Virus record (IMG/VR): IMGVR_UViG_3300049893_002759
Span: 4,056 to 68,055 of that record
Length of the DNA stretch: 64,000 nucleotides
Strand: one strand, 5' to 3'
Source of the DNA: a virus
The stretch's first letter is position 1. Each line of letters begins with the position of its first letter. A program made the position numbers and the translations under genes. The notes under the pieces are model-generated. The model was not told the DNA's origin and ran no database searches. It worked only from the letters and a program-made list of their open reading frames with translations. Below are positions 1 to 38,582 of this stretch, piece by piece.

Positions 1-1
1 A

Positions 2-3000
2 TCCCTGATACAACAGCTGGAAACTAATCCACGTACTCCCATAGCAGGATTTAATATCAGGGGATTCGATATTGGATTCATACAGCGCAGAGCTAGAACT
101 TATGGCTTAGAAAAACGATTTCTACAGACTATGAGAAATAGAGAAGTATTGGATCCTGCTAATTCAGTGAAAGATATTGTTGCATCTGCTATTAGTAGAC
201 ATGCAGATATAGGTACATTTAATCAAAGTTTGGGTGCAGCAAGTTGGCAAGAAGCTGAATCAGTATTTGGAGAACTTCCCTTTAGTAAAAGGCCAGTTGA
301 ATATAACCTTCTTGCTCAGGTAAAAGGTTATCTTACAGCTAATAGAGAAACAGCAATGTTTAAGGGATGGAAGCTAGAAGACTTATATAAGTTACTTCCA
401 GGAGAAGGTATAAAAGGTCAGGCTCACGAAGCTGCCACAGACATTAAGATGACTCAAAGAGTGATGCAAGCTGCTCGGAGTGGAGAACTAGAAAAAGAGT
501 TACAAAATCCAACTAAAGCTCTCCAATGGATGGAAACAGTAAAGGCCAGGGGCTTTGGGAAATTCCAAACCGAACGCTTGCTAGCGCAAGCGGATATAGA
601 TCAATTAGGATTAAAAGTACCACGTTGGTGGCAAACTAAACAAGCCAAAATTGCTGGACTAGGCCTAGCAGCCGTTGTGGCAGCAAGCTTGTTTTCTGGC
701 AAAGATGATGAATATAACACGATAGAAGGTCTTCCTCATGGTGGCTTTGCCCAATCAGGTAGATTACAGCTTACAGAGTTTGGTTCTGGTTATCGAGGTA
801 TTATAAAAATCAGTAAGCTTCTAACGCAGAATAATCCTTTTGCTACTAACTCTAGTGTAGCTAATGCTGGAGATATTCGTTATGCAGCAAAATATATTCG
901 AAATCTTGAACAGGGCTTTAAAAAGTCAGGTATGTCTCATGAAGTAGCACAGGCCTTTACAGATGTTAAAACAGAAATACGAACTGCTATAGAAGCAGGA
1001 CATAAAGATATCATTTCTGTATTTGAAGAAAATCTTCATAATACTGCTGATAGGCTGGGTGTTAGTCCTGTTTCTTATCTGAAAGAAATAATTAGACACG
1101 AAAACGTTCATGTGGGGATTCGTGTCAATAAACCATCTTTAGGTCGTGGCATCTTTGAATTGGATCAGCAAGAAAATCTTATTACAGATTTTGAAGAACT
1201 GAAAACATTTGCAAAAGAACATGGTATTAAACCGTCTTCGTTATATACTTGGTCTAGTAGATTACTTCAACATAATTATAATAATAAAAATGTTGATTTA
1301 TATTTAGAAGAAAGATTAGCTTGGGGTATTCAGCATGCTACACGAACAGGTTCTCGTGGGCGTCTTGCTGCAACAGGCATTCCTGCAGAAGGTCTTTATT
1401 CTGCAACTAAAGAACAGTTTATTCAATCTTATTCACCAAATTCACCTTTATCTTCATCAGAGTCTGAGTTTCTTGATGCTTTATACCAACCTCTTTCTAC
1501 AAAAGAAATGCAAGTTGGTTTAGAATTTGAACGACAAGGTCGAGTATCTCGTTTAGCGAAAGCCAAATATTTTAAAGAATGGATTGACGTTAAAACGCCA
1601 GTTACACAAAATGCGTTTTCTGGATTTGATGATAATTTCAATACAATTGAAGGATTAAATCACACCGGTATTGCTGGTGTTCGTCGTAAAAAGATTACAG
1701 ATTTTGGATCTGGTTTCACAACAGCTAAAGGTGTCGCAGAGCATTTAACTAAAACAGCTACTACTGGCCTTAAAGAAGTCGTTAATAGCGCTGTTGTAAA
1801 AGAAACTTTACAATTAGAATCTGAAGGAATAGCTCGTCAATTATTGGATGGCAGAGAGGCTGCCAATATAATAGAAGGTCTCGATCATTCAGGTATAGCT
1901 TCAATATTGCGTAAAAATACAGACTTTAGTTCTCCTGCTGTAGGAGCACGTACGCTACGTCGTGCTGAACGTTTATATAAATCGACAATGCGAGCTTCAT
2001 TGCAGGAAGCTGGATATAAAGGCAAAATAGATTGGTTAAGTCATATAGATGAAGATACTGGAGATATTGTATTAGCAGCTCGTAATGCTAAAGGAGAACG
2101 ACTAATGGGTATTCAGCGTTCTCTGCAAGAAGGAACAGTTAGTTTAACAAGTATAGAAATTGATCCAAGTTTGCGTGGTGGTCTTGGTCGTCGTTTTTAT
2201 GAACTAGAAGGCAGAATGCTTAAGCGTTTGGGCTTTGAGGGTGCTGAGATTACATCCCCGGTTGCTAATCCAGTAACAGGTAGAATGCAAGCTCAAATGT
2301 ATGGATCTAAACCAATGTCTATTTTTAATAGAGATCTTGAAGAAGCCTATGGTGTAAATCCAACTGAATTTCATGAAATGTTAATGTCCAAGAAAATGAC
2401 AAAAGAACAGTGGGAAGCTGTTGGACTTGCTCCTACTTTTGTGGGTCGTATTCCTACTCGTAATTCTGCAAATAACACAATAGACGGAATGGGCCATTCT
2501 GGTATTGCTCATAAGCTTAGAAAATTACTTTCGCCATTTGGATCTAAATGGGATGGACTTAGAAACTTTATACAAGGCACAGAAACGTTTCAAGAAATGA
2601 TATCCAGTAAAGGATTTCAGAAAGCCCTCAAAGATGCTGTTACTGTTAGACAATTAGGAATACCTGGTGCATTTGGTTCAGTACATGAAATGCGTGCAAC
2701 CTTTAGGGGTCGTGAATTTTCATTTGCTCGTAAAACTGGATCTATTCAAGAATTAGAAACTGATACTATGAACATGTTTTCAGAATCATTTGCCCCATCT
2801 GTATATTCACATTCCAAGTCTCATATAGATATGGAAATGTTTCAAGGAAAAGAATTTGCTGATGTTGCTAATCTTGATGCCAATAATATTACCGAACTAG
2901 TATCAAATGTTAAAGAAATGCATCGTAAGGGAATCGTTCACGGCGATCTTCATCAGGGTAATATTATGCTTACTAAAGAAGGTAATGTTGGCATTATTGA

Positions 3001-3298
3001 CTGGGGTACAGCAGGACCAACAGGATCTATACCAGATATTAGACTTAATGGTAAAGAAGTAACAGTGAATAATGTAGTTCAACGAAATGAAGCAATCGAT
3101 TGGAATAGAGTATTTAGAATTTCAAAACGATCTGGAAATTCACTTGAATCTTATCATGCCGCACCATTAGAAAGTTCTGAAATTAGATCTAAAACTGTTG
3201 TTGGTAGAAAGAAAAAGAGACAATCAGAATTACAAAAAGCTGCTTCTGCAACTGCTTGGATGCATGGTAAAAATGGTGGCAGAAAATCTAGGTTATAA
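2..3298 (+). CDS. Polyvalent multi-enzyme protein, 5'-truncated: DEDDh/DnaQ-like exonuclease + HExxH metallopeptidase + GNAT + kinase, separated by repeated linkers
   Basis: The frame is open from base 2 (SLIQQLETNPRTPIAGFNIRGFDIGFIQRR...), so the ATG at 131 is internal. Motifs: ExoII-like GFNIRGFD and ExoIII-like AHEAATD; RHENVH...EERLAW; SIEIDPSLRGGLGRRFY; GAFGSV...ARK...HGDLHQGNIM...IIDWG. Confidence 0.75.
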   Translation, partial: SLIQQLETNPRTPIAGFNIRGFDIGFIQRRARTYGLEKRFLQTMRNREVLDPANSVKDIVASAISRHADIGTFNQSLGAASWQEAESVFGELPFSKRPVEYNLLAQVKGYLTANRETAMFKGWKLEDLYKLLPGEGIKGQAHEAATDIKMTQRVMQAARSGELEKELQNPTKALQWMETVKARGFGKFQTERLLAQADIDQLGLKVPRWWQTKQAKIAGLGLAAVVAASLFSGKDDEYNTIEGLPHGGFAQSGRLQLTEFGSGYRGIIKISKLLTQNNPFATNSSVANAGDIRYAAKYIRNLEQGFKKSGMSHEVAQAFTDVKTEIRTAIEAGHKDIISVFEENLHNTADRLGVSPVSYLKEIIRHENVHVGIRVNKPSLGRGIFELDQQENLITDFEELKTFAKEHGIKPSSLYTWSSRLLQHNYNNKNVDLYLEERLAWGIQHATRTGSRGRLAATGIPAEGLYSATKEQFIQSYSPNSPLSSSESEFLDALYQPLSTKEMQVGLEFERQGRVSRLAKAKYFKEWIDVKTPVTQNAFSGFDDNFNTIEGLNHTGIAGVRRKKITDFGSGFTTAKGVAEHLTKTATTGLKEVVNSAVVKETLQLESEGIARQLLDGREAANIIEGLDHSGIASILRKNTDFSSPAVGARTLRRAERLYKSTMRASLQEAGYKGKIDWLSHIDEDTGDIVLAARNAKGERLMGIQRSLQEGTVSLTSIEIDPSLRGGLGRRFYELEGRMLKRLGFEGAEITSPVANPVTGRMQAQMYGSKPMSIFNRDLEEAYGVNPTEFHEMLMSKKMTKEQWEAVGLAPTFVGRIPTRNSANNTIDGMGHSGIAHKLRKLLSPFGSKWDGLRNFIQGTETFQEMISSKGFQKALKDAVTVRQLGIPGAFGSVHEMRATFRGREFSFARKTGSIQELETDTMNMFSESFAPSVYSHSKSHIDMEMFQGKEFADVANLDANNITELVSNVKEMHRKGIVHGDLHQGNIMLTKEGNVGIIDWGTAGPTGSIPDIRLNGKEVTVNNVVQRNEAIDWNRVFRISKRSGNSLESYHAAPLESSEIRSKTVVGRKKKRQSELQKAASATAWMHGKNGGRKSRL
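691..2545 (+). repeat. Four dispersed copies of a ~30-aa peptide linker, N[TI]I[ED]G[LM]xHxG[IF]AxxxRxxx(x)[TS][DEP]F[GS]S
   Basis: Copies at ~691-790 (DDEYNTIEGLPHGGFAQSGRLQLTEFGSG), ~1615-1714 (DDNFNTIEGLNHTGIAGVRRKKITDFGSG), ~1850-1933 (AANIIEGLDHSGIASILRKNTDFSS) and ~2462-2545 (ANNTIDGMGHSGIAHKLRKLLSPFGS). Confidence 0.9.
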
Positions 3299-3309
3299 TG
3301 GTGTGATAT

Positions 3310-4050
3310 ATGATTAATCCAAATATTACTAGAACTTCATTTGGCGGCCAGACTAGAACAAGTGTATTGCAACAAGCAGTTTTAGAAGCTAATCGTAAAG
3401 CTCCTGGATCGTTTAAGACTATAGGTAATAACTTTATTCCTAATAGCAATAAAATAGAATCTGATTTAACTAATCTTAAAGTACGTATTGGAATGGAACA
3501 AGCAACACGTGATCCTGGTGGAATATCAGGTAAAGCTTTCAAGGCTTTATATCCAGATAAATATGCTGCACTTCAAGAAAATATTTTAGATAAAAACAAA
3601 CAATTTTTAAGAGGGCAAATAGTTGGCGCTTCTTTAACCGGCAATAAAGCTGCTTTATCTGCTGCACAAAAATCTTTTACTGAAGCTATGAAAACAGGTG
3701 GCAGTCCTTTTAGTATGTCTATGCCCACAAGACTTGCATTAAATGCTAATTGGTCCGCTACTAAAATGGGAGCTAAAGTAGGAATGGGTGCTTTACGTGA
3801 AGCTAATATGGTTAGCCATGCTGTTCTTGGAACAGGCTTAAAACAAGTAGGTATTGCTGCTGCCCTAGTTGGTGGAATTGGATATGGAATAGGTAGTGCA
3901 TTAGGCATTTCTGGATCACAAGTTGCAGAAACAGCTTCTGCTGTTCATCAAGAATTTAAACAAGCTAGTAAACCAGTGTATGGTTATAGTGAAATTGGAC
4001 AATCTACTCAGGGTCTAGTTTTTGGATTGCATTCTAGGAGAACAAGATAA
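3310..4050 (+). CDS. Hypothetical Gly/Ala-rich protein with C-terminal hydrophobic helix (possible internal virion/ejection protein)
   Basis: 246-aa ORF; glycine-zipper-like segment GIAAALVGGIGYGIGSALGISG; translationally coupled to the next gene. Confidence 0.55.
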   Translation: MINPNITRTSFGGQTRTSVLQQAVLEANRKAPGSFKTIGNNFIPNSNKIESDLTNLKVRIGMEQATRDPGGISGKAFKALYPDKYAALQENILDKNKQFLRGQIVGASLTGNKAALSAAQKSFTEAMKTGGSPFSMSMPTRLALNANWSATKMGAKVGMGALREANMVSHAVLGTGLKQVGIAAALVGGIGYGIGSALGISGSQVAETASAVHQEFKQASKPVYGYSEIGQSTQGLVFGLHSRRTR

Positions 4051-4484
4051 TGTCTATTTTAATAAAATCTGCTTTCAATGGAATTGGTCAATTGCCTGGT
4101 GTAAGGCATTTAACGAAAGCTTTAGGAATTAAAGAAGGATTTAAAGGGCTTGGAGTTGCTGCTTCTATTGGTGTAGGCACTGTATTTGGATATTATAGCT
4201 ATGGTCATACATATGGAACAGGAACAGCAGCGCTGTATGGTATTGCTTCTGCTTATCCTATTACTGGAATTCCTCTTTTAATTCTTCAAGGTGGTAAAAC
4301 TATTGGAGATTTAACTTATAACTTACAAAAAAATAAACAACGTAGCTCATTTGCTAAAAATCAAATAAATGATAAATTTGGTACAATAAATGCTATGAGG
4401 CAGTATTCTGGACAAAAATTACGAAGAGATCATTCTTCAGTACAAAGAGTTTTAGGAAATGAAGCTGCCTATCTTCATCGATAA
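4050..4484 (+). CDS. Hypothetical membrane-associating protein
   Basis: 144 aa; TAATG overlap with the upstream gene; Gly-rich hydrophobic segments and a basic C-terminal half. Confidence 0.55.
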   Translation: MSILIKSAFNGIGQLPGVRHLTKALGIKEGFKGLGVAASIGVGTVFGYYSYGHTYGTGTAALYGIASAYPITGIPLLILQGGKTIGDLTYNLQKNKQRSSFAKNQINDKFGTINAMRQYSGQKLRRDHSSVQRVLGNEAAYLHR

Positions 4485-4497
4485 AGGAGTTACTAAT

Positions 4498-4953
4498 ATG
4501 CCATTGGGAACTAGTGTAATGAATTATGCCAGCAAAGCTGGTGGATATGCAATGCGTGGATGGAATGCCTATGCTGGTGCTATTGGTAATCGTACTTTAG
4601 CTGCAGCTGCTCTAGGTGGTATAAGCGGTGCCAGTTATGAGATGGCTGCTAATAATTCTGCCGGTACATTAACAGGTGGATTGAAAGGTTTTGCTATGGG
4701 AGCAGCAATGGGTGCTGGCGCTTATAGATATGGTGGAGCTATGTACCGTGGTGGTCGTTCTACTTATCGCGCGATATCTATGGGCAGAACTGGAGCTAAT
4801 TATTCAGGTGCCGGTCTTGCTGGACTAACAATGCGTGGAGCAGGTAGGCGTGCTTTCCGTCAGATTCGTAATGATGCTATGTCAGCATACTCTCATATTG
4901 GAAAAGGGATTAATAAAGGTTTTAATGCCTTTAAAGGACTACAGTCTACTTAG
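4498..4953 (+). CDS. Hypothetical basic Gly/Ala-rich protein
   Basis: AAAGGAG SD just upstream favours ATG 4498 over 4459; glycine-zipper-like GAAMGAGA and an Arg-rich tail. Confidence 0.55.
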   Translation: MPLGTSVMNYASKAGGYAMRGWNAYAGAIGNRTLAAAALGGISGASYEMAANNSAGTLTGGLKGFAMGAAMGAGAYRYGGAMYRGGRSTYRAISMGRTGANYSGAGLAGLTMRGAGRRAFRQIRNDAMSAYSHIGKGINKGFNAFKGLQST

Positions 4954-4961
4954 AGGATAAT

Positions 4962-6905
4962 GTGGCGTTAAATATATTGCAATCAGATGATGCTTGTCGT
5001 ACCTGTTTGAAAGGGTATGCTAAAAAACATGACTTCAAAGTAGGCGACAAGTTTGACATTCAATGTAGGGGTATTCCTAGACAGTATGTAAGTGATGCTG
5101 CAGCTGCTCTATTGACTAGTAACTTTAATGCTGAATTAGTACTTGATCCAGTCAAGTGGGCAGCTGAGGTTCTTGATTGGCATTGTCTTGATGCCGATTC
5201 AGATGTCTGGGCTAGAAAAAATCCAGATGAATATTTTCATCAAGTTGCAGAGAATCCAGGAAGACAAAGTAAATACCATCGTCCTTACCAAGCAACAATG
5301 TTACGTTGTTCTGCTAAATACAAAGTATTTCGTATTGGACGTCAGTCTGGAAAAACAGAGACTCTAGTAATCAGTATATTATTCCAGATGTTTACTAATA
5401 GTGGATTTAAAATTGTATTAATTACACCTTTTCAATCTCAAATTGATCTTATCTTCAAACGTATAGAAGATCTTATTTATTCAAATACTACACTTTCTAA
5501 TTCAATTAAAAGAAGTGTAAAAGCGCCTCAATATACTCTAACCTTACATAATGGTTCTCAAATTAAGGGCTTCACTGCAGGTACCAAGTCTGGTAACGGT
5601 GCAGCTTCTGTTCGTGGTCAAGACGCAAACATGCTAGTATTTGACGAAGCAGATTATCTTGATCGTGCAGATCTTGATGCCGCAATGGCTATTATTACTA
5701 ACTTTCCTGATGCAACTGTTTGGATGTCTTCTACTCCTACTGGACGTCGTGAGAAATTCTATGAAATTTGTCAGGATCGTGAATGGAAAGAGTTCCATTT
5801 TCCATCTCATGTAAATCCTAACTGGTCTGAAAAGCTAGACCGATTATTTAAAAAGAATCTTACAGCTATTGGTTACAAACACGAAATTCTTGCTGAATTT
5901 GGCGAACAAGAAGAAGGTGTATTTCAAGCACCATATGTTGATGCAGCTATACAAGATTATTCGTATGCATCTTGTATTCCATCTAATGGGTGGCTATATT
6001 CTATTGGTGTTGACTGGAACTCACCAAAAATTGGTACTACTATTTATGTTACTGGATTTAATCCATCCACTAATAAGTTTCGGACTGTTGAACATGCATG
6101 TGTTCAAAGAGCTGGTTGGACACAAACAGCTGCTTGTGAAAAAATTATTGAACTTCATCGTAAATGGCGTCCATTTGCTATTTATGTAGATCAAGGTTAT
6201 GGGTCGACTCAGATTGAAATCATACGTAAGTTTGGCTTCGATGCTCGTATTGATCCTGAAAAAGGACCATCTCATATTGACTCTCGTTTGCCAAAAACAC
6301 TAAAGCCTTATGACTTTGGTAGTGCAATAGAAATTAGAGATCCATTTACAAAAGAATTACGGAAGAAACCTGCTAAAGGGTTTTTGGTAGAAAGCGCTGT
6401 GCGTCGATTTGAGTCTGGGGACATTATGATTCCTAAACAAGATGAGCAGCTTAAAAAAGAACTATTAGGATATATCGTTAAACATGTTACTGTTACTGGA
6501 CAAGTAGTTTATACAACAGTTGACGATGCAGTTGGTGACCATAATCTTGATGCATTTATGTTGTCTTTAGTAGCTTTTACATTAGAAAAAGGACCAATGG
6601 GTAAACCTGTTCTTAATCACAAAACTCTGTTTACTCCGATAGATAATCGTTCTATTGATGAAACAAATAAAGATGCTGCATTAAAAATACATAATGAAAA
6701 AGATAGACTTCTTGAACGTGAACAAAATAAGCCGGCTGATCGTGATTTTAAAACTACTGCTCCTGTTTCTAACTTATGGAGCTGGCCTGGATTTGGTTAT
6801 GATGCACCACGACCTATTATTAGTGGAGGCTTTCATGGAAGAAGACAATCGACTACAATATTTAAACGTCCAACTAATAACGGAAAACGACGGAATTCTT
6901 TTTGA
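4962..6905 (+). CDS. terL: Terminase large subunit
   Basis: Walker A GRQSGKT, Walker B LVFDEAD, motif III SSTP, nuclease motifs IGVDW and DHNLDA; GTG start with AGAGGA SD. Confidence 0.93.
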   Translation: MALNILQSDDACRTCLKGYAKKHDFKVGDKFDIQCRGIPRQYVSDAAAALLTSNFNAELVLDPVKWAAEVLDWHCLDADSDVWARKNPDEYFHQVAENPGRQSKYHRPYQATMLRCSAKYKVFRIGRQSGKTETLVISILFQMFTNSGFKIVLITPFQSQIDLIFKRIEDLIYSNTTLSNSIKRSVKAPQYTLTLHNGSQIKGFTAGTKSGNGAASVRGQDANMLVFDEADYLDRADLDAAMAIITNFPDATVWMSSTPTGRREKFYEICQDREWKEFHFPSHVNPNWSEKLDRLFKKNLTAIGYKHEILAEFGEQEEGVFQAPYVDAAIQDYSYASCIPSNGWLYSIGVDWNSPKIGTTIYVTGFNPSTNKFRTVEHACVQRAGWTQTAACEKIIELHRKWRPFAIYVDQGYGSTQIEIIRKFGFDARIDPEKGPSHIDSRLPKTLKPYDFGSAIEIRDPFTKELRKKPAKGFLVESAVRRFESGDIMIPKQDEQLKKELLGYIVKHVTVTGQVVYTTVDDAVGDHNLDAFMLSLVAFTLEKGPMGKPVLNHKTLFTPIDNRSIDETNKDAALKIHNEKDRLLEREQNKPADRDFKTTAPVSNLWSWPGFGYDAPRPIISGGFHGRRQSTTIFKRPTNNGKRRNSF

Positions 6906-6914
6906 GGTGCTGTA

Positions 6915-7364
6915 ATGGGTATAGGCATTTATACTGAAGCAAATTCAGAAACATTATTATCACAAGATGATCTATTTACGAAGCCATTTGCGATCACATT
7001 TGATGGACGCACTGGTGGGTACAAGGAGGTGAAGCTCTTTTTACGCAACGATGATGTTACTCGTTACTATACTGATCTTATCGTTTCGTTAGAAGACCTT
7101 CAGGATCCTCCAGTTACTTCTAGACCAGAAGATGGTTTTGTTTGGAAATTATCATATGGTGACATTAAACCCACGTTTAATGATTGGGTTAATACTCCAG
7201 CTGCTAATTCATTAACAATACCTGTCAGTATTGGTGGATTAGGTGATCCAGATGTTTCTACTTATCTACCATTTTGGGTATTTATTCAAATTCCTCCAAA
7301 CCTTGATATACAAGTTATAACTGGAGTAAAATTTGTAATACAAGGAAATGAGGCGTTAATTTAA
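6915..7364 (+). CDS. Hypothetical beta-rich virion protein
   Basis: 149 aa with GAGGTG SD, in the structural operon. Confidence 0.6.
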   Translation: MGIGIYTEANSETLLSQDDLFTKPFAITFDGRTGGYKEVKLFLRNDDVTRYYTDLIVSLEDLQDPPVTSRPEDGFVWKLSYGDIKPTFNDWVNTPAANSLTIPVSIGGLGDPDVSTYLPFWVFIQIPPNLDIQVITGVKFVIQGNEALI

Positions 7365-9576: not shown

Positions 9577-12500
9577 ATGAAGATCTTTGGATTTAACTTT
9601 GGAGAAAAAATTTTTGCTCCACTTGTAACTCCTGACACTCAAGTGTCACTTCGTAAACAGGATGCATCTCCAACAATACGTCCTGAATTGAAGTCTATTT
9701 CTATTCCAGAAAACAAAAAACCAGCTAATATTCCACCTGTTGCTTCTAAGGTACTTGCTTACAATCAAGTAGGGGCTCGTAGAGGGCAATTTAATGAATC
9801 AGAATATGATCTAGCTTTAATCAACCGTATTGAAGATACTGATTCTTATGTACATCAAGCTTTTGTCAAAAAAGTAGGCCTGATGTTTAAAGAAGGTTAT
9901 GATCTTGTTGGTGCTGATCCTAAAACTATTCAGTACATTAAATTACGTTTTGCTCAAATTGCTAGAGCTACAAACACCCCCACAGATGAGTTATTGCGTT
10001 CATTAGGCAGATCATTAATTAAAAAATCAAATGCCTTTCTTGTCAAAGCTAGAAAGGAATCAGCTTCAGGTGGACGTTCTCGTATAGTACCTGGTACTTC
10101 TAAAGAGTTAGAACCAGTAGCAGGTTATTTTATTGCTCCTGCAGAAACAATGCAGTATGAAGCAGACAAAAATGGTCGTGTTACTCGATGGAAGCAACAA
10201 TTGCCAGATGGCCAGTTTACTTACTTTAGGCCAGAAGATGTTATTCATTTCTATTTTAATAGAAAAGATGGATTCATTTATGGTACTCCAACTATAGTAC
10301 CTGTTATTGATGATATCCGTTCTCTTCGTAAAATTGAAGAGAATATTGAATTGTTGGTATATCAACATTTATTTCCATTATTCCACTACAAGATTGGAAC
10401 TGATGACTTTCCGGCTACAGTAGATGAACAAGGAAACGATGAAATTGATTTAGCAAAACGAGAAATACAAGTTATGCCAGCAGAAGGTGGATTAGTCACC
10501 TCTCATCGTCATGAAATATCATTAATTGGTGCAGAAAACAGATCGTTGCGTGCAGAAGGTTATCTTGAGCACTTTAAAAAGAGAGTTTTTTCTGGTTTAG
10601 GTATTTCTGCAGTTGATATGGGTGAAGGCGAATGTTATTCAGCTGATACAGAAACCTTAACGGAAAATGGATGGAAATTCCACTGGCAAATTGATCATAC
10701 AACTGAACGTATTGCTACATATAATCCTGCAACTAATAAGATTGAATTCAATTTTGCTAACTACAAGCATGAATCTCATTATCGTGGACCAATGTTTCAT
10801 TTTACAAATGGAGAAGAACTTAATGTATTGGTAACACCAAAACACGATATGTGGCTACAAAATGTAGTCCGTGTAAGTGTATGGGGTAAAGTTCATGCTG
10901 AAGATTTGTTAACTAAACCAAACTTACATTGCAACATGTTGTTATCTACTGCATTTGATGAAGAAGAAGTATCGCAAGTTTTTCCTGATGAACTCATTGA
11001 ATCTTGGGCTACTCTTGCGGGCTGGATTGTAGGTATTGGTGAATATGTCCCTGCAACAAATCAAATTATGTTGAAAACTAATAAGATTCCTCGTGGAGAG
11101 CATCCTCTTGCTAGGGTCTTTAGCGAATTACATATTCCTTTTAATGTAACTAAAGTAACAAGTCATGCTCGTCGTCATCTTGAGATTACATTTGATGCTG
11201 ATGAATATTCTGGACAATTGAAAAAATACCTTAAATCTGAAGGCCATTCTGTTGTAAATGAAGTTTTAAAGCTTCCTATTGCAGCAAGAAAAATTGTTGC
11301 AGACGAAATGTTAGCATCTGGTGGTACTAGTAAGGGATTTAAATACATTAAGAAATATGGCAAGGCTCGTCACTGGTGGTTTGTATCTTCTAGTCATACA
11401 GTCTTAGATATTGTTCAAACAATACTTCTTTCTTGTGGTTATTTAGCTGTAAAAAAGAAAGGTCAACATAAAGACAAGTCTTTTGAATATGTTAATGTTC
11501 GCTGCGCATTGCGTAGACAACAATTATCTCCTATTAATCAAGAAACTATTAAGCAGGTTTCATATGATGGAACTATTTACTGTTACAACGTGCCAAATCA
11601 TCTATTTTTAACTAGACGACAAGGCTGTGTAGCTATTAATGGTAATACTGCTAATCGTGCTACTTCAGACAATATGTCCCGCAACTTAGTAGACTCTGTA
11701 AAAGATATTCAACGTGTTATGGAGTCACAGTTTAGTGCATTCATAATTAATGAATTATTGCTTGAATCTACATTTGGTTCAGATGTACTTAATGACGAAT
11801 CTCGCGTATCTCTTAAATTTAAAGAGATCGATCTGGATTATCAGATTAAAAAAGAAAATCATTATGCTGACCAATTTACTAAAAATACTATTTCTCATCA
11901 TGAAGCTCGTATTGGTATGGGTCGTCAACCTATGCGTATGCCAACAGCTGAAGAAATTGATGGTAATCCAAATATTGCTGAAAATTATCCAGAATGGTAT
12001 GGAACATTTTGGAAACTTATTGATGAACCTAAAGCTCTTATTCAAGCTATCGACGAACCTTATTCTGCAGCAGCCATTACAGCCGCTGCCAATAAAGGAA
12101 CTGAGGTAACTTCTGCTAATATTACAGAAGCCGGCGAACAACAAAAAGAACATGAAGTAGCTCTAGAAGCAGAAAAAGGTAAGGCTAAGGTTGCTATTGC
12201 TAAATTACGCCCTAAACCAGCTGCCAAAAAGAAAGATTCTTTCTTAAATGTAAAATTTGAAGCTTTAGAAAGTGACACGATTAGGATGATTAATCAAGGT
12301 AGTTTTTCTAATGACTGGTTAAAACATCTAGCATTCATGTCTGAGACGGATATGATTCGTGATTTGCGTACAAAGGCTATGACAGCATTTGCTTCTGGTT
12401 ATAGATCTATCAATCCACGTAGTGACCAACAAATTAATGCTACTATGCGCGCGCGTAGTAAAATAGAAAATCGTGTTAATTTTTATGTTCAACGCTTAAT

Positions 12501-12828
12501 TCGTCAAACTTTAGATGCAATTAAACGTCAAAATATTGATACTCTGGAGAAAGATGTTAGAATTCAAAAAGTTAAGGCAGCGTTTGAAGCATTTCGTTTC
12601 CGTAATGACTTTATTGAAGATGTGGAGGTCCGTAAAGCGTACAACTTAGGAGTTATTGAAGCAGCACGAAGTCTCGGGCATACTCAATGGACACTGGCTG
12701 TACCACATGATTCTTGTTCTGGATGTAAATTAGCATCTCAAACAATTCACCAAATTGGTGATAGTCTTGATTTAGAGGACGTACCTCCTCTGCATGCTAA
12801 TTCTAGAAGTCAAATAAAGATTCTATGA
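9577..12828 (+). CDS. Portal protein with an intein and a C-terminal MuF/head-morphogenesis-like region
   Basis: Portal-like FRPEDVIHF...YGTPTI segment; position between terminase and protease; C-terminal CSGC...VPPLHANSRS resembles the MuF PPxHPNCR motif. Confidence 0.82.
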   Translation: MKIFGFNFGEKIFAPLVTPDTQVSLRKQDASPTIRPELKSISIPENKKPANIPPVASKVLAYNQVGARRGQFNESEYDLALINRIEDTDSYVHQAFVKKVGLMFKEGYDLVGADPKTIQYIKLRFAQIARATNTPTDELLRSLGRSLIKKSNAFLVKARKESASGGRSRIVPGTSKELEPVAGYFIAPAETMQYEADKNGRVTRWKQQLPDGQFTYFRPEDVIHFYFNRKDGFIYGTPTIVPVIDDIRSLRKIEENIELLVYQHLFPLFHYKIGTDDFPATVDEQGNDEIDLAKREIQVMPAEGGLVTSHRHEISLIGAENRSLRAEGYLEHFKKRVFSGLGISAVDMGEGECYSADTETLTENGWKFHWQIDHTTERIATYNPATNKIEFNFANYKHESHYRGPMFHFTNGEELNVLVTPKHDMWLQNVVRVSVWGKVHAEDLLTKPNLHCNMLLSTAFDEEEVSQVFPDELIESWATLAGWIVGIGEYVPATNQIMLKTNKIPRGEHPLARVFSELHIPFNVTKVTSHARRHLEITFDADEYSGQLKKYLKSEGHSVVNEVLKLPIAARKIVADEMLASGGTSKGFKYIKKYGKARHWWFVSSSHTVLDIVQTILLSCGYLAVKKKGQHKDKSFEYVNVRCALRRQQLSPINQETIKQVSYDGTIYCYNVPNHLFLTRRQGCVAINGNTANRATSDNMSRNLVDSVKDIQRVMESQFSAFIINELLLESTFGSDVLNDESRVSLKFKEIDLDYQIKKENHYADQFTKNTISHHEARIGMGRQPMRMPTAEEIDGNPNIAENYPEWYGTFWKLIDEPKALIQAIDEPYSAAAITAAANKGTEVTSANITEAGEQQKEHEVALEAEKGKAKVAIAKLRPKPAAKKKDSFLNVKFEALESDTIRMINQGSFSNDWLKHLAFMSETDMIRDLRTKAMTAFASGYRSINPRSDQQINATMRARSKIENRVNFYVQRLIRQTLDAIKRQNIDTLEKDVRIQKVKAAFEAFRFRNDFIEDVEVRKAYNLGVIEAARSLGHTQWTLAVPHDSCSGCKLASQTIHQIGDSLDLEDVPPLHANSRSQIKIL
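10633..11646 (+). mobile_element. Intein (338 aa) with degenerate LAGLIDADG-type homing endonuclease
   Basis: N-terminal junction GE|CYSADTETLTENGWK; block B VTPKH; block F/G YDGTIYCYNVPNHLFLTRRQGCVAINGN|T. Removing it rejoins DMGEGE to TANRATS. Confidence 0.9.
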
Positions 12829-15038
12829 AGGACGGTTTAATTATGAATAAACATGAATTTGGATATCGTACAGATCGAGGATGGCATATTGATGATCGTT
12901 ATGACTTTCAAGTTATAAGTCATTCTGATAATGATCTTGCTCAAATACGCGATGATTACATGGGCGCGTTTAAGCCAGGCGATCCATCAACACCTCATTC
13001 TTCTGGACTTGGTGTTGTTGCTAATACAGATGGGCAACAAGCAAGAACTGGATTAATCATAAAGATTGCTGCTACTCATTCAGGTTTAATAACCAGAAAT
13101 AATGGTCTTTATCTACCTGATAAAATGCGTGCTGCTGTAGGAACTTGGACTGATCATTATCAAAAACCTATTCAGCTTCACCACAGTGATTCGAGTGACC
13201 CTATTGGGCGAGTCATTGCTGCTCGTTATGTTGACACTTCTAGTCCAGTAGTAGATCGTTTCCAAAATTCTGTTTTACGTGATCAATTTAATAATCAAAT
13301 TGGCCACGCAGATAGAAAATTCTGGGATAAATTCATTAGCGACAGAACATCGTTTATCGATAAGTTACAAATGTTAAGACTAATGGATTCTATTTTGAAT
13401 GATCCTCACTATCAAGGTGTTGGATATATTGAGCTTACTGCTAACATTACAGATCCAACAGCTATTCAAAAAGTTCTTGATAAGCGTTATATTACAGGGT
13501 CTGTAGGTGCTGTTTCAGATAAAGCAGTATGTTCTACTTGTAATACCAACTGGTTAGAAGAAGAACATTGTGGGCATCGTCCTGGACGTGTATATGATGG
13601 TAAAAAGTGTATTGTTATTACAGGCAATCTAGAATATGATGAATATTCATTTGTCAATACGCCTGCAGATAGACATTCTGGCGTAATTGATGCAGGACAG
13701 ATTAAAAATTCTGTTCAAGATGCAACTGACAGATCCGTTCGATACTTTCCTGTATTTAACGCACTGAAGGAGGACTCTACTATGAGTGATACAAAGACCG
13801 AAACAATTAAGGACTCGACTGTGGCGACTCCTGAACCAACAGAGACCACTGCAGATGTAGTTGTAGACAATTCAGCAACTGTTCAAGATGCTGTTCAGCC
13901 ATCTATTGATGAACAAATTACAGTTTTGATGGATAAACTTTTGTCTACTGGTTTGACTGAAGATGAATCTGAACAACTTTACCAATTTCAGCTTAATGAA
14001 ATGGATCAAGGTATTGTTGAAGATGCTAAACTTTCTTCTGAAAAACGCAAGAAACTTGCGTCTTCAACCTTTTGTGGTCCTAACAAATCTTTTCCAGTTC
14101 CAGATTGCGCTCATGTAGTTGCAGCACGTCGTCTAATTGGTCGTTATAAAGGTGAAGGATCTAAAGACTCAATTCTTGCTTGTGTAGCTAGAAAAGCTAA
14201 GGCACTTGGTTGTGATTCTACTAAAGACTCTATAAAAGATTCTGTAAAAGACAATGCTTTAGTTCCTGTAAACGGTCCAACTCATTCTGATGTTCCAGAT
14301 CCAAAAGCTGTAAAAGCAGCAGAATTACTAGAGCTTTTGCTTGCTGCATTTGGTGATGGACCTGAAGCTACATCGGATTACAGTCTAAATAATTCTGATA
14401 AAGAGAAATTAACACAATTAGTTCGTAAGTTATTAGCATTTAGTAAAGATTCTTTACATGAAATTCTTGTTGAGGAAAAGGTAATTGATTCTTCTGTTGT
14501 AGAAGACAGAGAGAGTTTGATTACTGAAGTGGCTAAAAATGAAGAGCTTATTGGTGATCTTCGTGATCAATTAACAGCACTTAGAAAGGAACTAAAGGCC
14601 GCATATGAAGATGTAGTTACCCTTGAAGATCAATTAATTTCTTCTCGAGAAATAGTTCGTTCTGTTAAAACTGAAAAGGCATCTCTACTTCATATGTTAG
14701 ATGGTTCTTTTACAGATGCTATAAAAGACAGTGTTGCGTCTTTAACTGACGAGGCATTAGATTCTGCAATTGCAACCTTATCAACAAAAGTTGACATATC
14801 AAAAATTGCTGATAAGCTTAACAGTGGACTCTCAAGAACACCAAATGAGACAGTTGAAGTTCCAGCAGGGTTGACCGAGCCTACTGCTGTAACCCAACCA
14901 ACCAATAAGCCTACCTATGCTACCCAGCAAATGGTAGATGAAGTTTACCGCCGTACATTACTTAGCCAAGGACATACAGCTGCACAAGCATTTTATACAG
15001 ATGCTGTTAAGCGTGGCCTAGCTAAACCAAAAGAGTAA
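12825..15038 (+). CDS. Prohead maturation serine protease fused to scaffolding region
   Basis: IQLHH...PIGR, GSVG and EYSFVNTPAD resemble HK97/herpes-fold prohead proteases; CSTC...CGHRPG Zn-like insert; acidic coiled-coil C-terminal half. The start may be ATG 12843. Confidence 0.8.
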   Translation: MKDGLIMNKHEFGYRTDRGWHIDDRYDFQVISHSDNDLAQIRDDYMGAFKPGDPSTPHSSGLGVVANTDGQQARTGLIIKIAATHSGLITRNNGLYLPDKMRAAVGTWTDHYQKPIQLHHSDSSDPIGRVIAARYVDTSSPVVDRFQNSVLRDQFNNQIGHADRKFWDKFISDRTSFIDKLQMLRLMDSILNDPHYQGVGYIELTANITDPTAIQKVLDKRYITGSVGAVSDKAVCSTCNTNWLEEEHCGHRPGRVYDGKKCIVITGNLEYDEYSFVNTPADRHSGVIDAGQIKNSVQDATDRSVRYFPVFNALKEDSTMSDTKTETIKDSTVATPEPTETTADVVVDNSATVQDAVQPSIDEQITVLMDKLLSTGLTEDESEQLYQFQLNEMDQGIVEDAKLSSEKRKKLASSTFCGPNKSFPVPDCAHVVAARRLIGRYKGEGSKDSILACVARKAKALGCDSTKDSIKDSVKDNALVPVNGPTHSDVPDPKAVKAAELLELLLAAFGDGPEATSDYSLNNSDKEKLTQLVRKLLAFSKDSLHEILVEEKVIDSSVVEDRESLITEVAKNEELIGDLRDQLTALRKELKAAYEDVVTLEDQLISSREIVRSVKTEKASLLHMLDGSFTDAIKDSVASLTDEALDSAIATLSTKVDISKIADKLNSGLSRTPNETVEVPAGLTEPTAVTQPTNKPTYATQQMVDEVYRRTLLSQGHTAAQAFYTDAVKRGLAKPKE
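13782..15038 (+). CDS. Putative nested in-frame scaffolding protein (internal start)
   Basis: AAGGAGG SD at 13767-13773 precedes the in-frame ATG 13782 (MSDTKTET...), right after the protease domain. Confidence 0.6.
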   Translation: MSDTKTETIKDSTVATPEPTETTADVVVDNSATVQDAVQPSIDEQITVLMDKLLSTGLTEDESEQLYQFQLNEMDQGIVEDAKLSSEKRKKLASSTFCGPNKSFPVPDCAHVVAARRLIGRYKGEGSKDSILACVARKAKALGCDSTKDSIKDSVKDNALVPVNGPTHSDVPDPKAVKAAELLELLLAAFGDGPEATSDYSLNNSDKEKLTQLVRKLLAFSKDSLHEILVEEKVIDSSVVEDRESLITEVAKNEELIGDLRDQLTALRKELKAAYEDVVTLEDQLISSREIVRSVKTEKASLLHMLDGSFTDAIKDSVASLTDEALDSAIATLSTKVDISKIADKLNSGLSRTPNETVEVPAGLTEPTAVTQPTNKPTYATQQMVDEVYRRTLLSQGHTAAQAFYTDAVKRGLAKPKE

Positions 15039-34766: not shown

Positions 34767-37700
34767 TTGCTAAATATTACCAGAGAAGATTTAATCACTT
34801 TTGCACCAGATCGTCCATATAGAAACTATTCTTGGTCAAGTGGTGATCAAACACAGGTTACTCCTTATGCAACACAAGGCATAAGAGGTGCTGCATTTTT
34901 AGCAGGAGCAGGAGCTACGGTTGGTGCGTTTTCAGTAGCTAAACGTTTTGGTTATAATCCTTGGGATCCTATTTATTCAGGTATTCGTACAGTCGAAGAA
35001 TTGTCTCCAGGACATATATTTCGTACATTTCAATTGGGCAACTTTGTTTCTCAATTTACAACACAAGGGTTAGCTCCACTTGATATTTCTGCAGACTTAA
35101 TACAAAAAACAAAAAACTCTGCTTGGTTTGCTGATCTAGTTCATCGTACTGGACCTGCTACATTATCTGCTACTCAAACTGGATTACAGTTTAGAGATGG
35201 CACTCTTTATGCTGGAGAACAGGTACTACTAGAAAATGCTCGACGAATGACAAGTGTTGGTAGTCCATATTATGCAGCTGCCTACTCTCGCGCTCTTGGA
35301 TTTAAAGGCCTTCCTAATACTACTTTGCCTGATCATTTTCAATTTCAACGCCCACTAGTTGAAGGCCTTACTGAATCTATTTATTTTACTGGTGGACCAA
35401 CACGTGGTCGTGCTGCGTTAACACAATTCCAGGCTATAGCTGGAGAATCTATTGAGCGTGCTAATAGATTGGCAGCAGCACCTTTTGGTATTGAACCATT
35501 CTCAACTGGGTTGAAAGGTGTTGAAGAGTTTTGGGAACGTAACTTTGGTACTCGCTTTACTCTAGCAGTCAAATCAGGTAGTGCTACAGAAACATTAGGT
35601 CGCATGGCTGGAAAATGGGGCGGTATTGGTACTGCAGCTTATCTAGCTTATCAAACTGCTGACTGGGCAACTCGCAATACTGAAATACTAGACAATACTA
35701 TTTTTAATGAAGGTATTACTGCTGGCATTGCTACACTTGGAGTTAAAGCTAATAAATTCGCGTCTACAATAGCTGATATTCTACCTGGTGCTAGAGCATA
35801 TCGTGAAAAACAAGAAGAACTTGCACCAGGTTCTACTAGTTTATTAAAACTAGCAGCATTTCCTCTTACGGGAGCTATGGTTGGCGGTAGTGCTTATTAC
35901 TTTACTGGACTTCGTGAACGCTTAAAAGCTACTAATGAATTAATGGAGAAAGGCTTATCATATACTCAGGCTCTTCCTTTAGCTGAACAACGTTGGCTAG
36001 AAACTAGTACTAGTTTTATTGAAGACAACCCATTGACTCGATTACTAGAGTCTAAATTTGGGAAGAATATTCCATTTCTTGGAAAAATTACCCGTCCTAA
36101 AGGATTTGCTTTATTAGGAGCATTAGCTCTTACTGTGCCAGTCTTACCGTTTCTTCCTGGAGCTTTAATTCCAGAAAAGACTAGTGAGGAATTAGACAAA
36201 ATTTACTCTGGTCAAGAAGAAGTTGCTGTTAGAAAGGGACGCTTTTGGGAACTTGGTCGTTCACCTTATGAAGGCGGGAAAATTGAATATTTTCGCCCAC
36301 ATTGGTACGCACGCTTGATGCAACGATCTTATGGTAAGTCCATGTATGACAATCAAGATCCAAATCCAATTGTTCAATGGGTAAAAGAAAACTTTACGTA
36401 TGATGTAGAAAAAGAACATTATTATGATCGTCCTTATCCAATTACAGGAACTGCTTTTGAAGACATTCCTCTAATAGGTCCTATTCTTGGAGCAACTATT
36501 GGTAGGATTATTAAACCACCTAAGTTAATGCATACAGAAGAATGGTTAAAGCAAGGTAGTTCATCTAGGCTAGATGAAGAATCTGAAGTATTACGTACTC
36601 CTGGTCGTTTAGGTGAACAAGCTCCACTTGTAAACGATGCATCTCGTGGAACACCAATTGATCCTAATTCTCTTCGTCAAGTTGCTGGCGAACAAGCATA
36701 TCGTTTGACAGAACTTTCTGGTTTAATTGGCTTTACGACTTCAGCTTTAAAAGGTGCAATTACTGGTGAACAAGAATTCTTTGATCAAGAAGAAGTTCTT
36801 CAATCTGCTAGAAGGATGTATGGAGCTGAACGTTCTTTTTGGGATCTAAATATGGGTGGCGCTGCATTTACTAACGAACTTTTTCGTCGTATGTATCCAC
36901 ATAGACGCAGACAAATCGAAGAATATAATCCAATTAGAAATACTATGCCAGATTGGATGCCAGGTCCCGGAGAAAGATCTGCTGATTTTTTACATGGTGA
37001 TCCATTTACTAAAGTTCAAGAAGGAGAAATGCGCCTTCCTGGTGAAGGATACGCAGCTCGTTTCCCTGAATTATCAGGAATAAATCCTGAAGACTATCCT
37101 CTTATTCATAAATATAAGATTCTAGCTGATATTGCACCATATGCAGATCGTACTAAAGCTTTAGGTGCTAAACTTACTGGCCTTGCTAATGCTGGGTCTT
37201 TGTCTGAATATGAACTTAATTTATTACAACAAGTTAAACGTCAAGGTGCAGAACGTAAAAAAACTAAATCTTTTTATCAATTTGAAGTAACTGGTGAATC
37301 ACCAGATTTAACGCTCCCAGAAGAACTGGGCGCTACTCAGTCTCGTGCTGCTGTTGCGGCACTTAATCGTATTCTTGCTGCTAAACAAGATGAAAAAATT
37401 AGTCCAGCACGTTCTGTAATTGGTGGATATTGGGAATCTTTAGCTAAAGCTTTACAAAACCCATTAGAAGCAATTGTACCTGTTGCTCCTGGATCTAAAC
37501 TTCTTAACATGAAGTCAGCTATTCAGGAATATAAACAAACACAAGTATTTGGTCCTGATATAGCATTTTGGGAACATCCAATTGAAAATTTTATTCGTCC
37601 ATTTATACGTGAGACAGCAGACCTATTTGCTGATCAGCCAGTTCCAGAAGAGGTACAAAAGAAACGTGGTATAGAAGAATATTTCGATATTTTAGAATAT

Positions 37701-38582
37701 ATAAAAAATAAACGACTGGCTGAAGTAGCTCGGACATCAGGTGCATCTGATGTATCTGGTGCTTATGAGCGTATGGCTACTGAAACATCGGTGGGCATTA
37801 ATCCATATACTCGAAATTATTCTGCGCTTTTTCGTTCTCTTCCACGTAGTGAACGAGATTATTTTCAAGAGTTTGCTGGAGCAAAAACACAAGAAGAACG
37901 TCAACAAATCCTATCATTAGTTCCTCCTAATTTACGCAGAATTTACGCAGCTCAATGGGAGCAGCAATATGCTGATACTTTAAAAAACGCTCTTGATCGT
38001 GAGCTACTATCAGGTGAAGCAGCTCAAGCAGCACAAAATGATCTTCAAGCTTTTTATAATAAGAAAGCTACTGAAGGTTTTCCTGTTAATGATTCATTAA
38101 TTGATAGATATCAAGATGAACGTGAAGATGAAGAAACATATGCTGATTGGTTTAGACGTTCTGTTTTAATTCCTGGTGTCGTTGGTGAAGAAGGAATTCC
38201 TGGCCCTGACTGGGTAGGATGGCATCCTGGAATAGACTTAGATGAAATTAAACTCAAAGTAGTTAAAAATGAAGCTATGGATATTCATGACTTTAATCTT
38301 TGGTCTTCAGATGAAAGATCTGTTAGTCGCAAGTCTTACTTAGATGATGTTACAGAAGACTTAATTGAAAATGTAATTTCTAATGAAAATAATAGTCCTC
38401 AACATGTTCAGCAAGAAGTGCGTAAAATATTAGCTGAACTTGGTATTGGTTCTAATGCACAAATATTTGTATATGAAGTGCCTGATAATCGAGAAGAGAC
38501 TAAAATACAAATACAAGCTTCTGAATTACGAGATCGAGAAATTCGTGAAGTTCTAACAGAGAGGTTAAACGAACTTGGCTAA
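34767..38582 (+). CDS. Tape-measure-like / internal virion protein (1271 aa)
   Basis: TTG start with GAGG SD; follows the chaperones; several hydrophobic Gly/Ala segments and a helical composition. Confidence 0.5.
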   Translation: MLNITREDLITFAPDRPYRNYSWSSGDQTQVTPYATQGIRGAAFLAGAGATVGAFSVAKRFGYNPWDPIYSGIRTVEELSPGHIFRTFQLGNFVSQFTTQGLAPLDISADLIQKTKNSAWFADLVHRTGPATLSATQTGLQFRDGTLYAGEQVLLENARRMTSVGSPYYAAAYSRALGFKGLPNTTLPDHFQFQRPLVEGLTESIYFTGGPTRGRAALTQFQAIAGESIERANRLAAAPFGIEPFSTGLKGVEEFWERNFGTRFTLAVKSGSATETLGRMAGKWGGIGTAAYLAYQTADWATRNTEILDNTIFNEGITAGIATLGVKANKFASTIADILPGARAYREKQEELAPGSTSLLKLAAFPLTGAMVGGSAYYFTGLRERLKATNELMEKGLSYTQALPLAEQRWLETSTSFIEDNPLTRLLESKFGKNIPFLGKITRPKGFALLGALALTVPVLPFLPGALIPEKTSEELDKIYSGQEEVAVRKGRFWELGRSPYEGGKIEYFRPHWYARLMQRSYGKSMYDNQDPNPIVQWVKENFTYDVEKEHYYDRPYPITGTAFEDIPLIGPILGATIGRIIKPPKLMHTEEWLKQGSSSRLDEESEVLRTPGRLGEQAPLVNDASRGTPIDPNSLRQVAGEQAYRLTELSGLIGFTTSALKGAITGEQEFFDQEEVLQSARRMYGAERSFWDLNMGGAAFTNELFRRMYPHRRRQIEEYNPIRNTMPDWMPGPGERSADFLHGDPFTKVQEGEMRLPGEGYAARFPELSGINPEDYPLIHKYKILADIAPYADRTKALGAKLTGLANAGSLSEYELNLLQQVKRQGAERKKTKSFYQFEVTGESPDLTLPEELGATQSRAAVAALNRILAAKQDEKISPARSVIGGYWESLAKALQNPLEAIVPVAPGSKLLNMKSAIQEYKQTQVFGPDIAFWEHPIENFIRPFIRETADLFADQPVPEEVQKKRGIEEYFDILEYIKNKRLAEVARTSGASDVSGAYERMATETSVGINPYTRNYSALFRSLPRSERDYFQEFAGAKTQEERQQILSLVPPNLRRIYAAQWEQQYADTLKNALDRELLSGEAAQAAQNDLQAFYNKKATEGFPVNDSLIDRYQDEREDEETYADWFRRSVLIPGVVGEEGIPGPDWVGWHPGIDLDEIKLKVVKNEAMDIHDFNLWSSDERSVSRKSYLDDVTEDLIENVISNENNSPQHVQQEVRKILAELGIGSNAQIFVYEVPDNREETKIQIQASELRDREIREVLTERLNELG

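Follow-up and report, generated by a model that had tools for sequence, protein, structure and literature searches.

What is the function of a 36-amino-acid (aa) motif that recurs between the domains of a single large viral polyprotein? This question is raised by a stretch of 64,000 nucleotides (nt), hereafter the window, which comprises bases 4056-68055 of the 68,055-nt IMG/VR virus record IMGVR_UViG_3300049893_002759 (CheckV completeness 36%) and derives from an uncultivated jumbo myovirus of roughly 190 kb. The polyprotein is encoded by an open reading frame (ORF) at window positions 1..3298 (+ strand), the 5' part of which is cut off by the window edge; the true start is a GTG codon at record base 3832, 224 nt upstream, and the full protein (P0002; record 3832-7353) has 1173 aa, to which the residue numbers below refer. 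It combines exonuclease, HExxH, alpha/beta and kinase modules. Comparative analysis places it in a lineage of polyvalent proteins of jumbo phages in which one universal 36-aa delimiter, a connector without a family name, recurs. Regarding its function, our tentative answer, to which we give somewhat less than an even chance, is that this linker is a recognition or cleavage delimiter that would release virion-delivered modules.

Inspection of the window polyprotein revealed four copies of the motif, FSGKDDxYNTIEGLxHGGxAxxxRKxxTDFGSGW, lying between domains as a preliminary description of this DNA had claimed. The regular expression N.I[ED]G..H.G gave four matches, at residues 314, 622, 697 and 900 (window nt 716, 1640, 1865, and 2474), and all four copies were also recovered by an independent profile built from 54 copies of other viral contigs with no window sequence in it, the runner-up among the 1216 six-frame segments of the 68-kb record having an E-value of 0.21. 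The copies, all on the + strand, are located at 692..799 (copy 1, residues 306-341; profile independent E-value 3.3e-19), 1616..1723 (copy 2, residues 614-649; 2.1e-18), 1841..1945 (copy 3, residues 689-723; 3e-05) and 2450..2557 (copy 4, residues 892-927; 1.9e-09), copy 3 being the most degenerate of the four, with the FSGKDD part gone. The residues invariant in a 38-aa alignment of the four copies (N9, I11, G13, H16, G18, A20, R24, F30, and S32) are exactly those listed as conserved in the preliminary description. Copies 2, 3, and 4 are 53, 35, and 34% identical to copy 1, respectively; pairs of copies have 13-20 of 35-36 residues in common, 4-11 of them specified by different codons, and the nucleotide identity is just 48-58%. 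The different codons and the low nucleotide identity indicate that the linker is conserved at the protein level, which bears out the selection on protein sequence that had been proposed.

The full-length AlphaFold2 model (32-row alignment, mean predicted local distance difference test score [pLDDT] 68.6) contains three confident bodies, at residues ~5-300, 724-891, and ~930-1125, with pLDDT >80 across most of residues 10-280, 730-890, and 940-1110, while pLDDT is <50 at residues 306-368, 482-633, 636-720, and 897-923. The copies fall within these low-pLDDT stretches, which places the linkers at the edges of folded domains. The earlier claim that a copy marks every domain boundary goes slightly too far: the junctions between the exonuclease, the helical region and a hydrophobic helix, and between the kinase and the C-terminal tail, are without a copy. 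Within all four linker copies pLDDT is <50, and the model shows coil with one short helix per copy, spanning motif positions 19-27 (H324-332, H632-640, H707-714, and H910-918). Copies 2 and 3 enclose very little, as had been noticed: the 'nearly empty slot' between them (1724..1840, + strand; residues 650-688) is a 39-aa spacer with a low-confidence predicted helix, for which family searches gave no match, a separate AlphaFold2 model of linker 2, spacer, and linker 3 had a mean pLDDT of 45, and an ESM Atlas search with residues 606-735 returned nothing usable.

Searches beyond the window showed that the linker is widespread among viral proteins. Besides the query, a word-based search retrieved 31 proteins (724-1952 aa), each with the motif; together these 32 proteins contain 95 copies (2-6 each). 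A scan of IMG/VR reduced 64 pattern matches to 32 loci, in all of which (32/32) the copies are within one large ORF, and in five virus records, including one complete 191,113-nt genome with terminal repeats, the copies are likewise confined to a single ORF each. The preliminary description had named as its own refutation a hidden Markov model that finds no other occurrence; an exhaustive HMMER search of 1.84 billion cluster representatives with a 58-copy profile instead matched 567 further protein clusters at E <= 1e-3, 393 of them at <= 1e-10 and 132 at <= 1e-30. Among the 150 matches listed of these 567, lengths are 511-2454 aa with 2-7 copies. In a set of 163 proteins there are 493 copies (2, 3, 4, 5, 6, and 7 copies in 60, 56, 37, 4, 5, and 1 proteins, respectively), across which N9 is conserved in 96%, G13 in 96%, G18 in 97%, R24 in 98%, T28 in 92%, F30 in 98%, G31 in 97%, and S32 in 99%; H16 is conserved in 79%, with Glu in its place in 18%. 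While the rest of the protein is highly divergent, no other part of it is as well conserved as the linker.

No family known to Pfam covers the motif, according to searches with the 32 whole homologues, eight further proteins and, with a threshold as loose as E 10, 58 copies taken singly, and none was named by NCBIfam or by searches of PHROG and PDB, in agreement with the earlier impression that the linker belongs to no named family; its sole PDB profile match was a weak one to the Hef nuclease (1x2i; E 0.24). Scanning one genome each of 185,579 prokaryotic species with the motif gave 29 pattern matches, none of which was confirmed, and yielded no assignment to a host or prophage; a tblastn search of 50,697 phage records with the polyprotein gave no match, leaving it without a cultured relative.

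Regarding what the linkers separate, the 163 proteins have 330 internal segments with a median of 227 aa and bimodal lengths, 29 of them <60 aa. Segments of at least 40 aa fall into 174 sequence clusters, 33 with at least three members and 130 singletons, and 142 distinct module architectures are found among the 163 proteins. The kinase is the most frequent module (91 proteins), followed by the DEDD exonuclease module, which is N-terminal in 81 of its 83 proteins, and by SNase (47 proteins; by Pfam in 12/32 homologues), an HExxH motif is present in 55/163 proteins, and most other modules are without a Pfam match. Slots as short as the nearly empty one are not confined to this phage: the 163 proteins have 35 spacers of <100 aa between copies, and even short units of 7-45 aa are still flanked by full linker copies, which indicates that each stretch between linkers acts as a unit. 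A conserved DD-helix mini-module is common to at least 13 of these 35 spacers. This mini-module has ~17-40 aa with the pattern hydrophobic-x-x-hydrophobic-D-D-hydrophobic-A...R/Y and was seen in P0008, P0031, P0035, P0045-47, P0050, P0052, P0074, P0091, P0108, P0116, and P0159; among other short slots, some are extremely basic (P0040, P0076, P0132) and some transmembrane-like (P0012, P0045, P0073). The mean identity between linker copies is 0.55-0.71 for shared and for different flanking modules alike, and the effect of the upstream module is small (identity of the N-terminal half of the linker 0.71 with a shared and 0.63 with an unshared upstream module). Linker identity is thus nearly independent of the flanks, which argues for one constant partner.

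In the window polyprotein the N-terminal module (2..643, + strand; residues 1-289; pLDDT >90) comprises a DEDD-type 3'-5' exonuclease-like domain and a helical region, the former called from weak PHROG 192 and Pfam RNase_H_2/PolB-exo matches, with the ExoI motif WLDIETGG upstream of the window and HEAATD at window 425-442. Directly before linker 1 the sequence contains a hydrophobic, transmembrane-like helix, AKIAGLGLAAVVAASL (644..691, + strand), and a hydrophobic 17-mer at most 24 aa upstream of the first copy was found in 81/160 proteins, compared with 43/330 for later copies. Module 1 (800..1615, + strand; residues 342-613) is helical, without Pfam or PDB match and with pLDDT mostly <60; its HExxH motif, HENVH at window 1097-1111, suggests that it is possibly a zincin-like metallopeptidase, of unconfirmed fold. 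Module 3 (1946..2449, + strand; residues 724-891; pLDDT 82-95) is an alpha/beta domain with the motif RGGLGRRFY that belongs to module cluster K8, present in 15 proteins, and has no Pfam or PDB sequence match; it may be GNAT-like, a label that no tool supports. PDB sequence searches with modules 1 and 3 returned chance-level matches only. The protein kinase-like module (2558..3154, + strand; pLDDT >90), with HGDLHQGN at 2939-2962 and IIDWG at 2993-3007, is matched by the Pfam families APH, Pkinase, RIO1, and ABC1 and, using Foldseek, by RIO2, RIO1, and other kinases with E-values down to 1.8e-07. The protein ends in a basic conserved C-terminal tail (3197..3298, + strand), ...LQKAASATAWMHGKNGGRKSRL followed by the stop codon, and similar tails are present on two small proteins encoded downstream.

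The polyprotein gene is situated among packaging and head genes, in the order 285-aa TerS-like gene, polyprotein, 1.4-5 kb of small genes, the terminase large subunit (TerL), three genes, and portal. The 285-aa gene was found upstream of the polyprotein in 22/32 loci and is taken as TerS-like from its position and a Cys-rich motif only, while TerL was found downstream in 27/32. In the window TerL is encoded at 4962..6905 (+ strand; PHROG 2, E 1.1e-30), and among cultured phages its closest counterparts belong to jumbo myoviruses: Moorella phage MTATph1 (34.5%), Acinetobacter ME3 (34%), and Bacillus 0305phi8-36 (27%). The portal (9577-12828), the major capsid protein (16342-17613) and the tail sheath (28627-30537) follow; the virus is contractile-tailed.

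Between the polyprotein and TerL, the window encodes three small Gly-rich hydrophobic proteins of types A, B, and C (246, 144, and 164 aa; 3310..4953, + strand), which have no family, and this triplet recurs at the same place in relatives (L003-L032). Type C is Gly-rich, and conserved C-terminal tails are found on types A and B, the tail of type A being ...GLVQGLHRGRHG (15 ORFs match the pattern) and that of type B ...TMRQRSLQAIQNS..NGR.ALGNEA... (16 ORFs, one probably by chance). The C-terminus of the polyprotein resembles these small-protein tails; in other polyproteins it reads ...MR..M....IGHHRG and is often part of a 44-66-aa unit after the last linker. The neighbouring small proteins have a polyprotein-like C-terminal tail and lack the linker. 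The tail, being common to both, is therefore likely to be a better candidate for a particle-incorporation signal than the linker. Pfam, PHROGs, NCBIfam, and PDB searches gave nothing useful for the small proteins, the 285-aa protein, or ORFs of 420, 507, and 1271 aa.

Following the portal gene is a gene for a 737-aa prohead protease/scaffold fusion (12825..15038, + strand), which by tblastn matches 0305phi8-36 ORF123, 'protease/scaffold' (1e-23), and the KLEB27-3 'prohead protease' (2e-16), and has invariant H120 and S226 and a coiled-coil C-terminal half. The Pfam S78 model had no match in five related virus records; the S77 model had none there either, nor in any control genome, and is therefore uninformative. 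An invariant C-x2-C-x9-C-x-H cluster (C236, C239, C249, and H251) is inserted in the protease domain. A homologue of this protein, P0273, is labelled as from a 'Flammeovirgaceae bacterium' metagenome-assembled genome, a weak hint of a Bacteroidota host, and the only one, that is maybe a binning artefact. Two of the five related records (L036, L035) also have a ClpP-family gene far from the head genes (G001:C1:114445-114945 and G002:C1:30086-30565).

The 1083-aa portal seems to have an intein-like insert at about residues 353-693, starting ...GEGE|CYSADTETL and ending ...VAINGN|T, and its residues 351-719 have PHROG matches to ribonucleotide reductase and thymidylate synthase families. TerL is apparently interrupted by intein- or homing-endonuclease-like sequence in three relatives (L009, 8256-9236; L011, 13602 onward; L012, 15316 onward), where the ORFs end ...HNSGK... 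or ...VHNC..... Farther along the window, a 1980-aa protein (43070-49012) has an M23-type peptidase/endolysin-like region at residues ~975-1120 and a match to a giant 'endolysin' PHROG at residues 1650-1820, and is probably a tape-measure or cell-puncturing protein.

The linker system is also found outside the packaging neighbourhood. In a second lineage (L021, L024, L025, L027, and L034) there is no terminase nearby, and the modules with their linkers are found at the N-terminal end of a giant ORF (796-2410 aa), the remainder of which is homologous to the 1271-aa protein of the tail-gene region of the window (34767..38582, + strand; no PHROG or PDB match). This giant ORF is located after sheath and tube homologues, and in one record of this lineage that is 89% complete it holds the only copies. 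The fusion of modules to a homologue of the 1271-aa protein indicates that the linker system can be attached to another large protein of the structural block.

Under the reading favoured here, the polyprotein would be a virion-associated 'polyvalent' effector, brought whole into the particle by its C-terminal tail and not by the linker, while the linker would be a short linear motif recognised by one and the same partner throughout, and cleavage there would most likely split the chain into its modules. The virus's own prohead protease/scaffold would be the likeliest enzyme, with HExxH modules acting in cis or autoproteolysis as alternatives, and the candidate scissile bonds would be T-I-E|G or the almost invariant F-G|S. 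The position of the gene in the packaging/head block and the protease/scaffold gene after the portal point to this reading, and T-I-E|G resembles the X-X-E| motifs of the T4, phiKZ, and SPN3US proteases. Precedents are the cutting of ejection proteins by giant-phage proteases (PMC5694885) and the peptidase processing proposed for polyvalent proteins (PMC5512222). The modules appear solely inside chains, no linker-kinase-tail unit having been found as a separate gene of 161-515 aa when such genes were searched for, which also supports this reading. The high conservation combined with low-confidence modelling fits a motif that is read by a partner, and the presence of one motif protein per genome, next to neighbours with the tail and without the linker, suggests that the job of the linker is specific to multi-module chains. 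Cleavage is the simplest role for a linker that delimits units, and of the three functions put forward in the preliminary description (capsid-targeting tag, processing site, and recombination anchor) the processing site fits best, cleavage as such staying a deduction.

Several observations weigh against release by cleavage. Known prohead-protease sites are far shorter than 36 residues, and the linker has conserved hydrophobic residues along its length (F1, Y8, I11, L14, a hydrophobic residue at 19, F30, and W34), which docking would fit equally. An examination of the major capsid protein, the portal, the scaffold, and further head proteins turned up no linker-like sub-motif, and Glu12 is just 82% conserved, with Asp, Gln, and Pro as alternatives. 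The prohead protease could not reach the protein of the second lineage if this is a tail component, and the presence of HExxH in 55/163 proteins means that a zincin acting in cis cannot be the general enzyme. When the linker was modelled in complex with the protease domain (residues 60-300 of the 737-aa ORF; 52-row alignment), the score (0.02, mark 0.32) gave no indication of binding or of its absence.

Some of these points lead to a serious though doubtful alternative, in which the linkers would dock on a repeated virion component and arrange the cargo without cleavage, the chain being ejected intact as beads on a string; the capsid interior, the scaffold, the portal, and the tail lumen or the protein of the 1271-aa type are candidates for this component. 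A long motif rich in conserved hydrophobic residues and glycines that is modelled with low confidence alone is typical of a fold-upon-binding peptide, several copies would provide multivalent binding, and both the packaging and head gene context and the occurrence of the motif on the giant protein of the tail-gene region, perhaps beyond the head protease, are consistent with docking. However, there is one motif protein per genome, the adjoining putative cargo has the shared C-terminal tail without the motif, and the copies are internal where the usual N-terminal module is present, known targeting peptides being usually terminal. For similar reasons (one protein per genome, the position between modules, and small proteins that share the tail and not the linker) the general capsid-targeting or cargo tag envisaged at the outset fits less well. 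Capsid-targeting peptides such as those of the T4 capsid-targeting sequence (CTS), encapsulin, and P22 scaffold systems are terminal and common to all particle cargo; the linker resembles them in being short and conserved and in its supposed task of directing cargo into, or holding it in, an HK97-fold shell, and differs from them in being internal, repeated, and restricted to one protein per genome. If, instead, the linker were a self-cleaving mini-module, it would break the chain at F-G|S by hydrolysis or an N-to-O acyl shift, using a minimal triad of Asp5/Asp6, His16, and Ser32. No triplet is more conserved than F30-G31-S32 (98, 97, and 99%), Glu is the sole substitute for H16 (18%), the bond is reminiscent of G|S autoprocessing sites, and such a mechanism would suit both head- and tail-gene contexts as well as the 108/163 proteins without HExxH; we nevertheless regard it as unlikely, as known autoproteolytic domains are folded and of at least ~100 aa, whereas the linker has 36 aa and is modelled with low confidence, and it has no family match of any kind. 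A broader version, in which a portable linker either self-cleaves or is a protease-independent 'break-here' element that severs the chain at F-G|S in the particle or the host, is more improbable; if true, jumbo phages would deliver a shuffled set of >170 effector types from a single gene.

The remaining explanations turn on DNA or on the absence of any partner. The Hef match raises the idea that the linker is a helix-hairpin-helix (HhH)-like element binding DNA non-specifically, which would tether the modules to the phage DNA for co-packaging and co-ejection. The PDB profile alignment is to the first HhH of Hef (1x2i; IVEGLPH-VSATLARRLLKHFGS vs. tIEGLrHgGiaeklRkklTdFGS, E 0.24), the basic R24 and K/R25 are conserved, the gene lies between terminase subunit genes and close pairs of copies recur. 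An E-value of 0.24 is however not significant, none of 58 copies (0/58) matches Pfam HhH at E up to 10, the profile has no match in the chromosome of E. coli K-12, where RuvA and other HhH proteins are encoded, and the hairpin glycine spacing departs from the canonical GhG; AlphaFold2 has one short helix and not two, which at this low confidence is weak evidence. The likeness to HhH domains of the XPF/Hef/UvrC type is thus a local one (EGLPH...R..L...FGS), not significant and lacking a two-helix prediction, and this role is quite improbable. Recombination at the DNA level, with linkers as anchors for in-frame module swaps between co-infecting relatives, is very improbable as the primary function. 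All nine blastn high-scoring segment pairs to the 32 related loci (9/9; 38-106 nt, 71-89% identity) are inside linkers, which are the sole DNA similarity detectable in this way, and the mosaicism is extreme, with almost as many architectures as proteins (142 in 163). Yet the codon identity at identical residues is 0.467 in linkers (1796/3849) vs. 0.474 in TerL (3202/6754), so that the DNA similarity is a by-product of amino-acid conservation; the window copies are only 48-58% identical in DNA, and their near-invariant residues indicate a protein function. In-frame exchange at linkers is plausible and fits the mosaicism, probably as a consequence rather than a selected function. A passive flexible spacer without a specific partner would account for the low pLDDT in all copies; this explanation is untenable with eight positions 92-99% identical over 493 copies while the enzymatic domains have diverged beyond recognition, and we give it next to no weight.

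Among known systems, the closest likeness is to the polyvalent proteins of phages and conjugative elements, for which processing by peptidases has been proposed (Iyer et al. 2017, PMC5512222). As in the main text of that study, unrelated enzymatic domains are combined in one polypeptide in the packaging/head neighbourhood of portal-terminase phages, and further shared features are frequent HExxH motifs, proposed proteolytic processing, cassette-like variability and a truncated kinase, ascribed there to phages of Bacteroidetes and Verrucomicrobia-Chlamydia (PMC5512222). At least two disparate domains are found here as well, with TerL, portal, major capsid protein, and tail sheath in the window. 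The main text of that study, in which 'linker' occurs 0 times, makes no reference to a conserved connector (PMC5512222), although one of its 40 unnamed LPD domains could in principle overlap the motif, which matches no Pfam family; here, in contrast, module borders share one 36-aa motif, most modules are without a family, and MuF, ArdC-N, and other hub domains were not detected by Pfam. Regarding prohead proteases, those of giant phages are described as cutting many head and ejection proteins at short Glu-ending motifs, L/I-X-E|, S/A/G-X-E|, and A-X-E| in T4, phiKZ, 201phi2-1, and SPN3US (PMC5694885). The linker likewise has T-I-E followed by Gly, and this phage encodes a prohead protease, which belongs to the 0305phi8-36 'protease/scaffold' type and not to the gp21 type. 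The sites described there are however 3 residues long, occur in many head proteins and mostly serve N-terminal propeptide removal (PMC5694885), whereas the linker has 36 aa and lies between the modules of one protein only. Full-text literature searches gave no description of such an inter-module element.

Should the linker prove to be a universal delimiter, a search handle is provided by its profile, and any segment enclosed by two copies becomes a candidate phage effector, one of a set made or delivered together; the 174 module clusters of the 163 proteins, mostly without family, would then form a catalogue of unexplored candidate anti-host or anti-defence activities of uncultivated jumbo phages. 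A portable 36-residue cut or dock signal would also be a useful tool. If the favoured reading is true, this would be, to our knowledge, the first known phage polyprotein system with a dedicated conserved recognition element between modules, with a logic comparable to that of viral polyprotein cleavage sites and eukaryotic polyprotein precursors. The processing of polyvalent proteins, a question raised in 2017, becomes directly testable.

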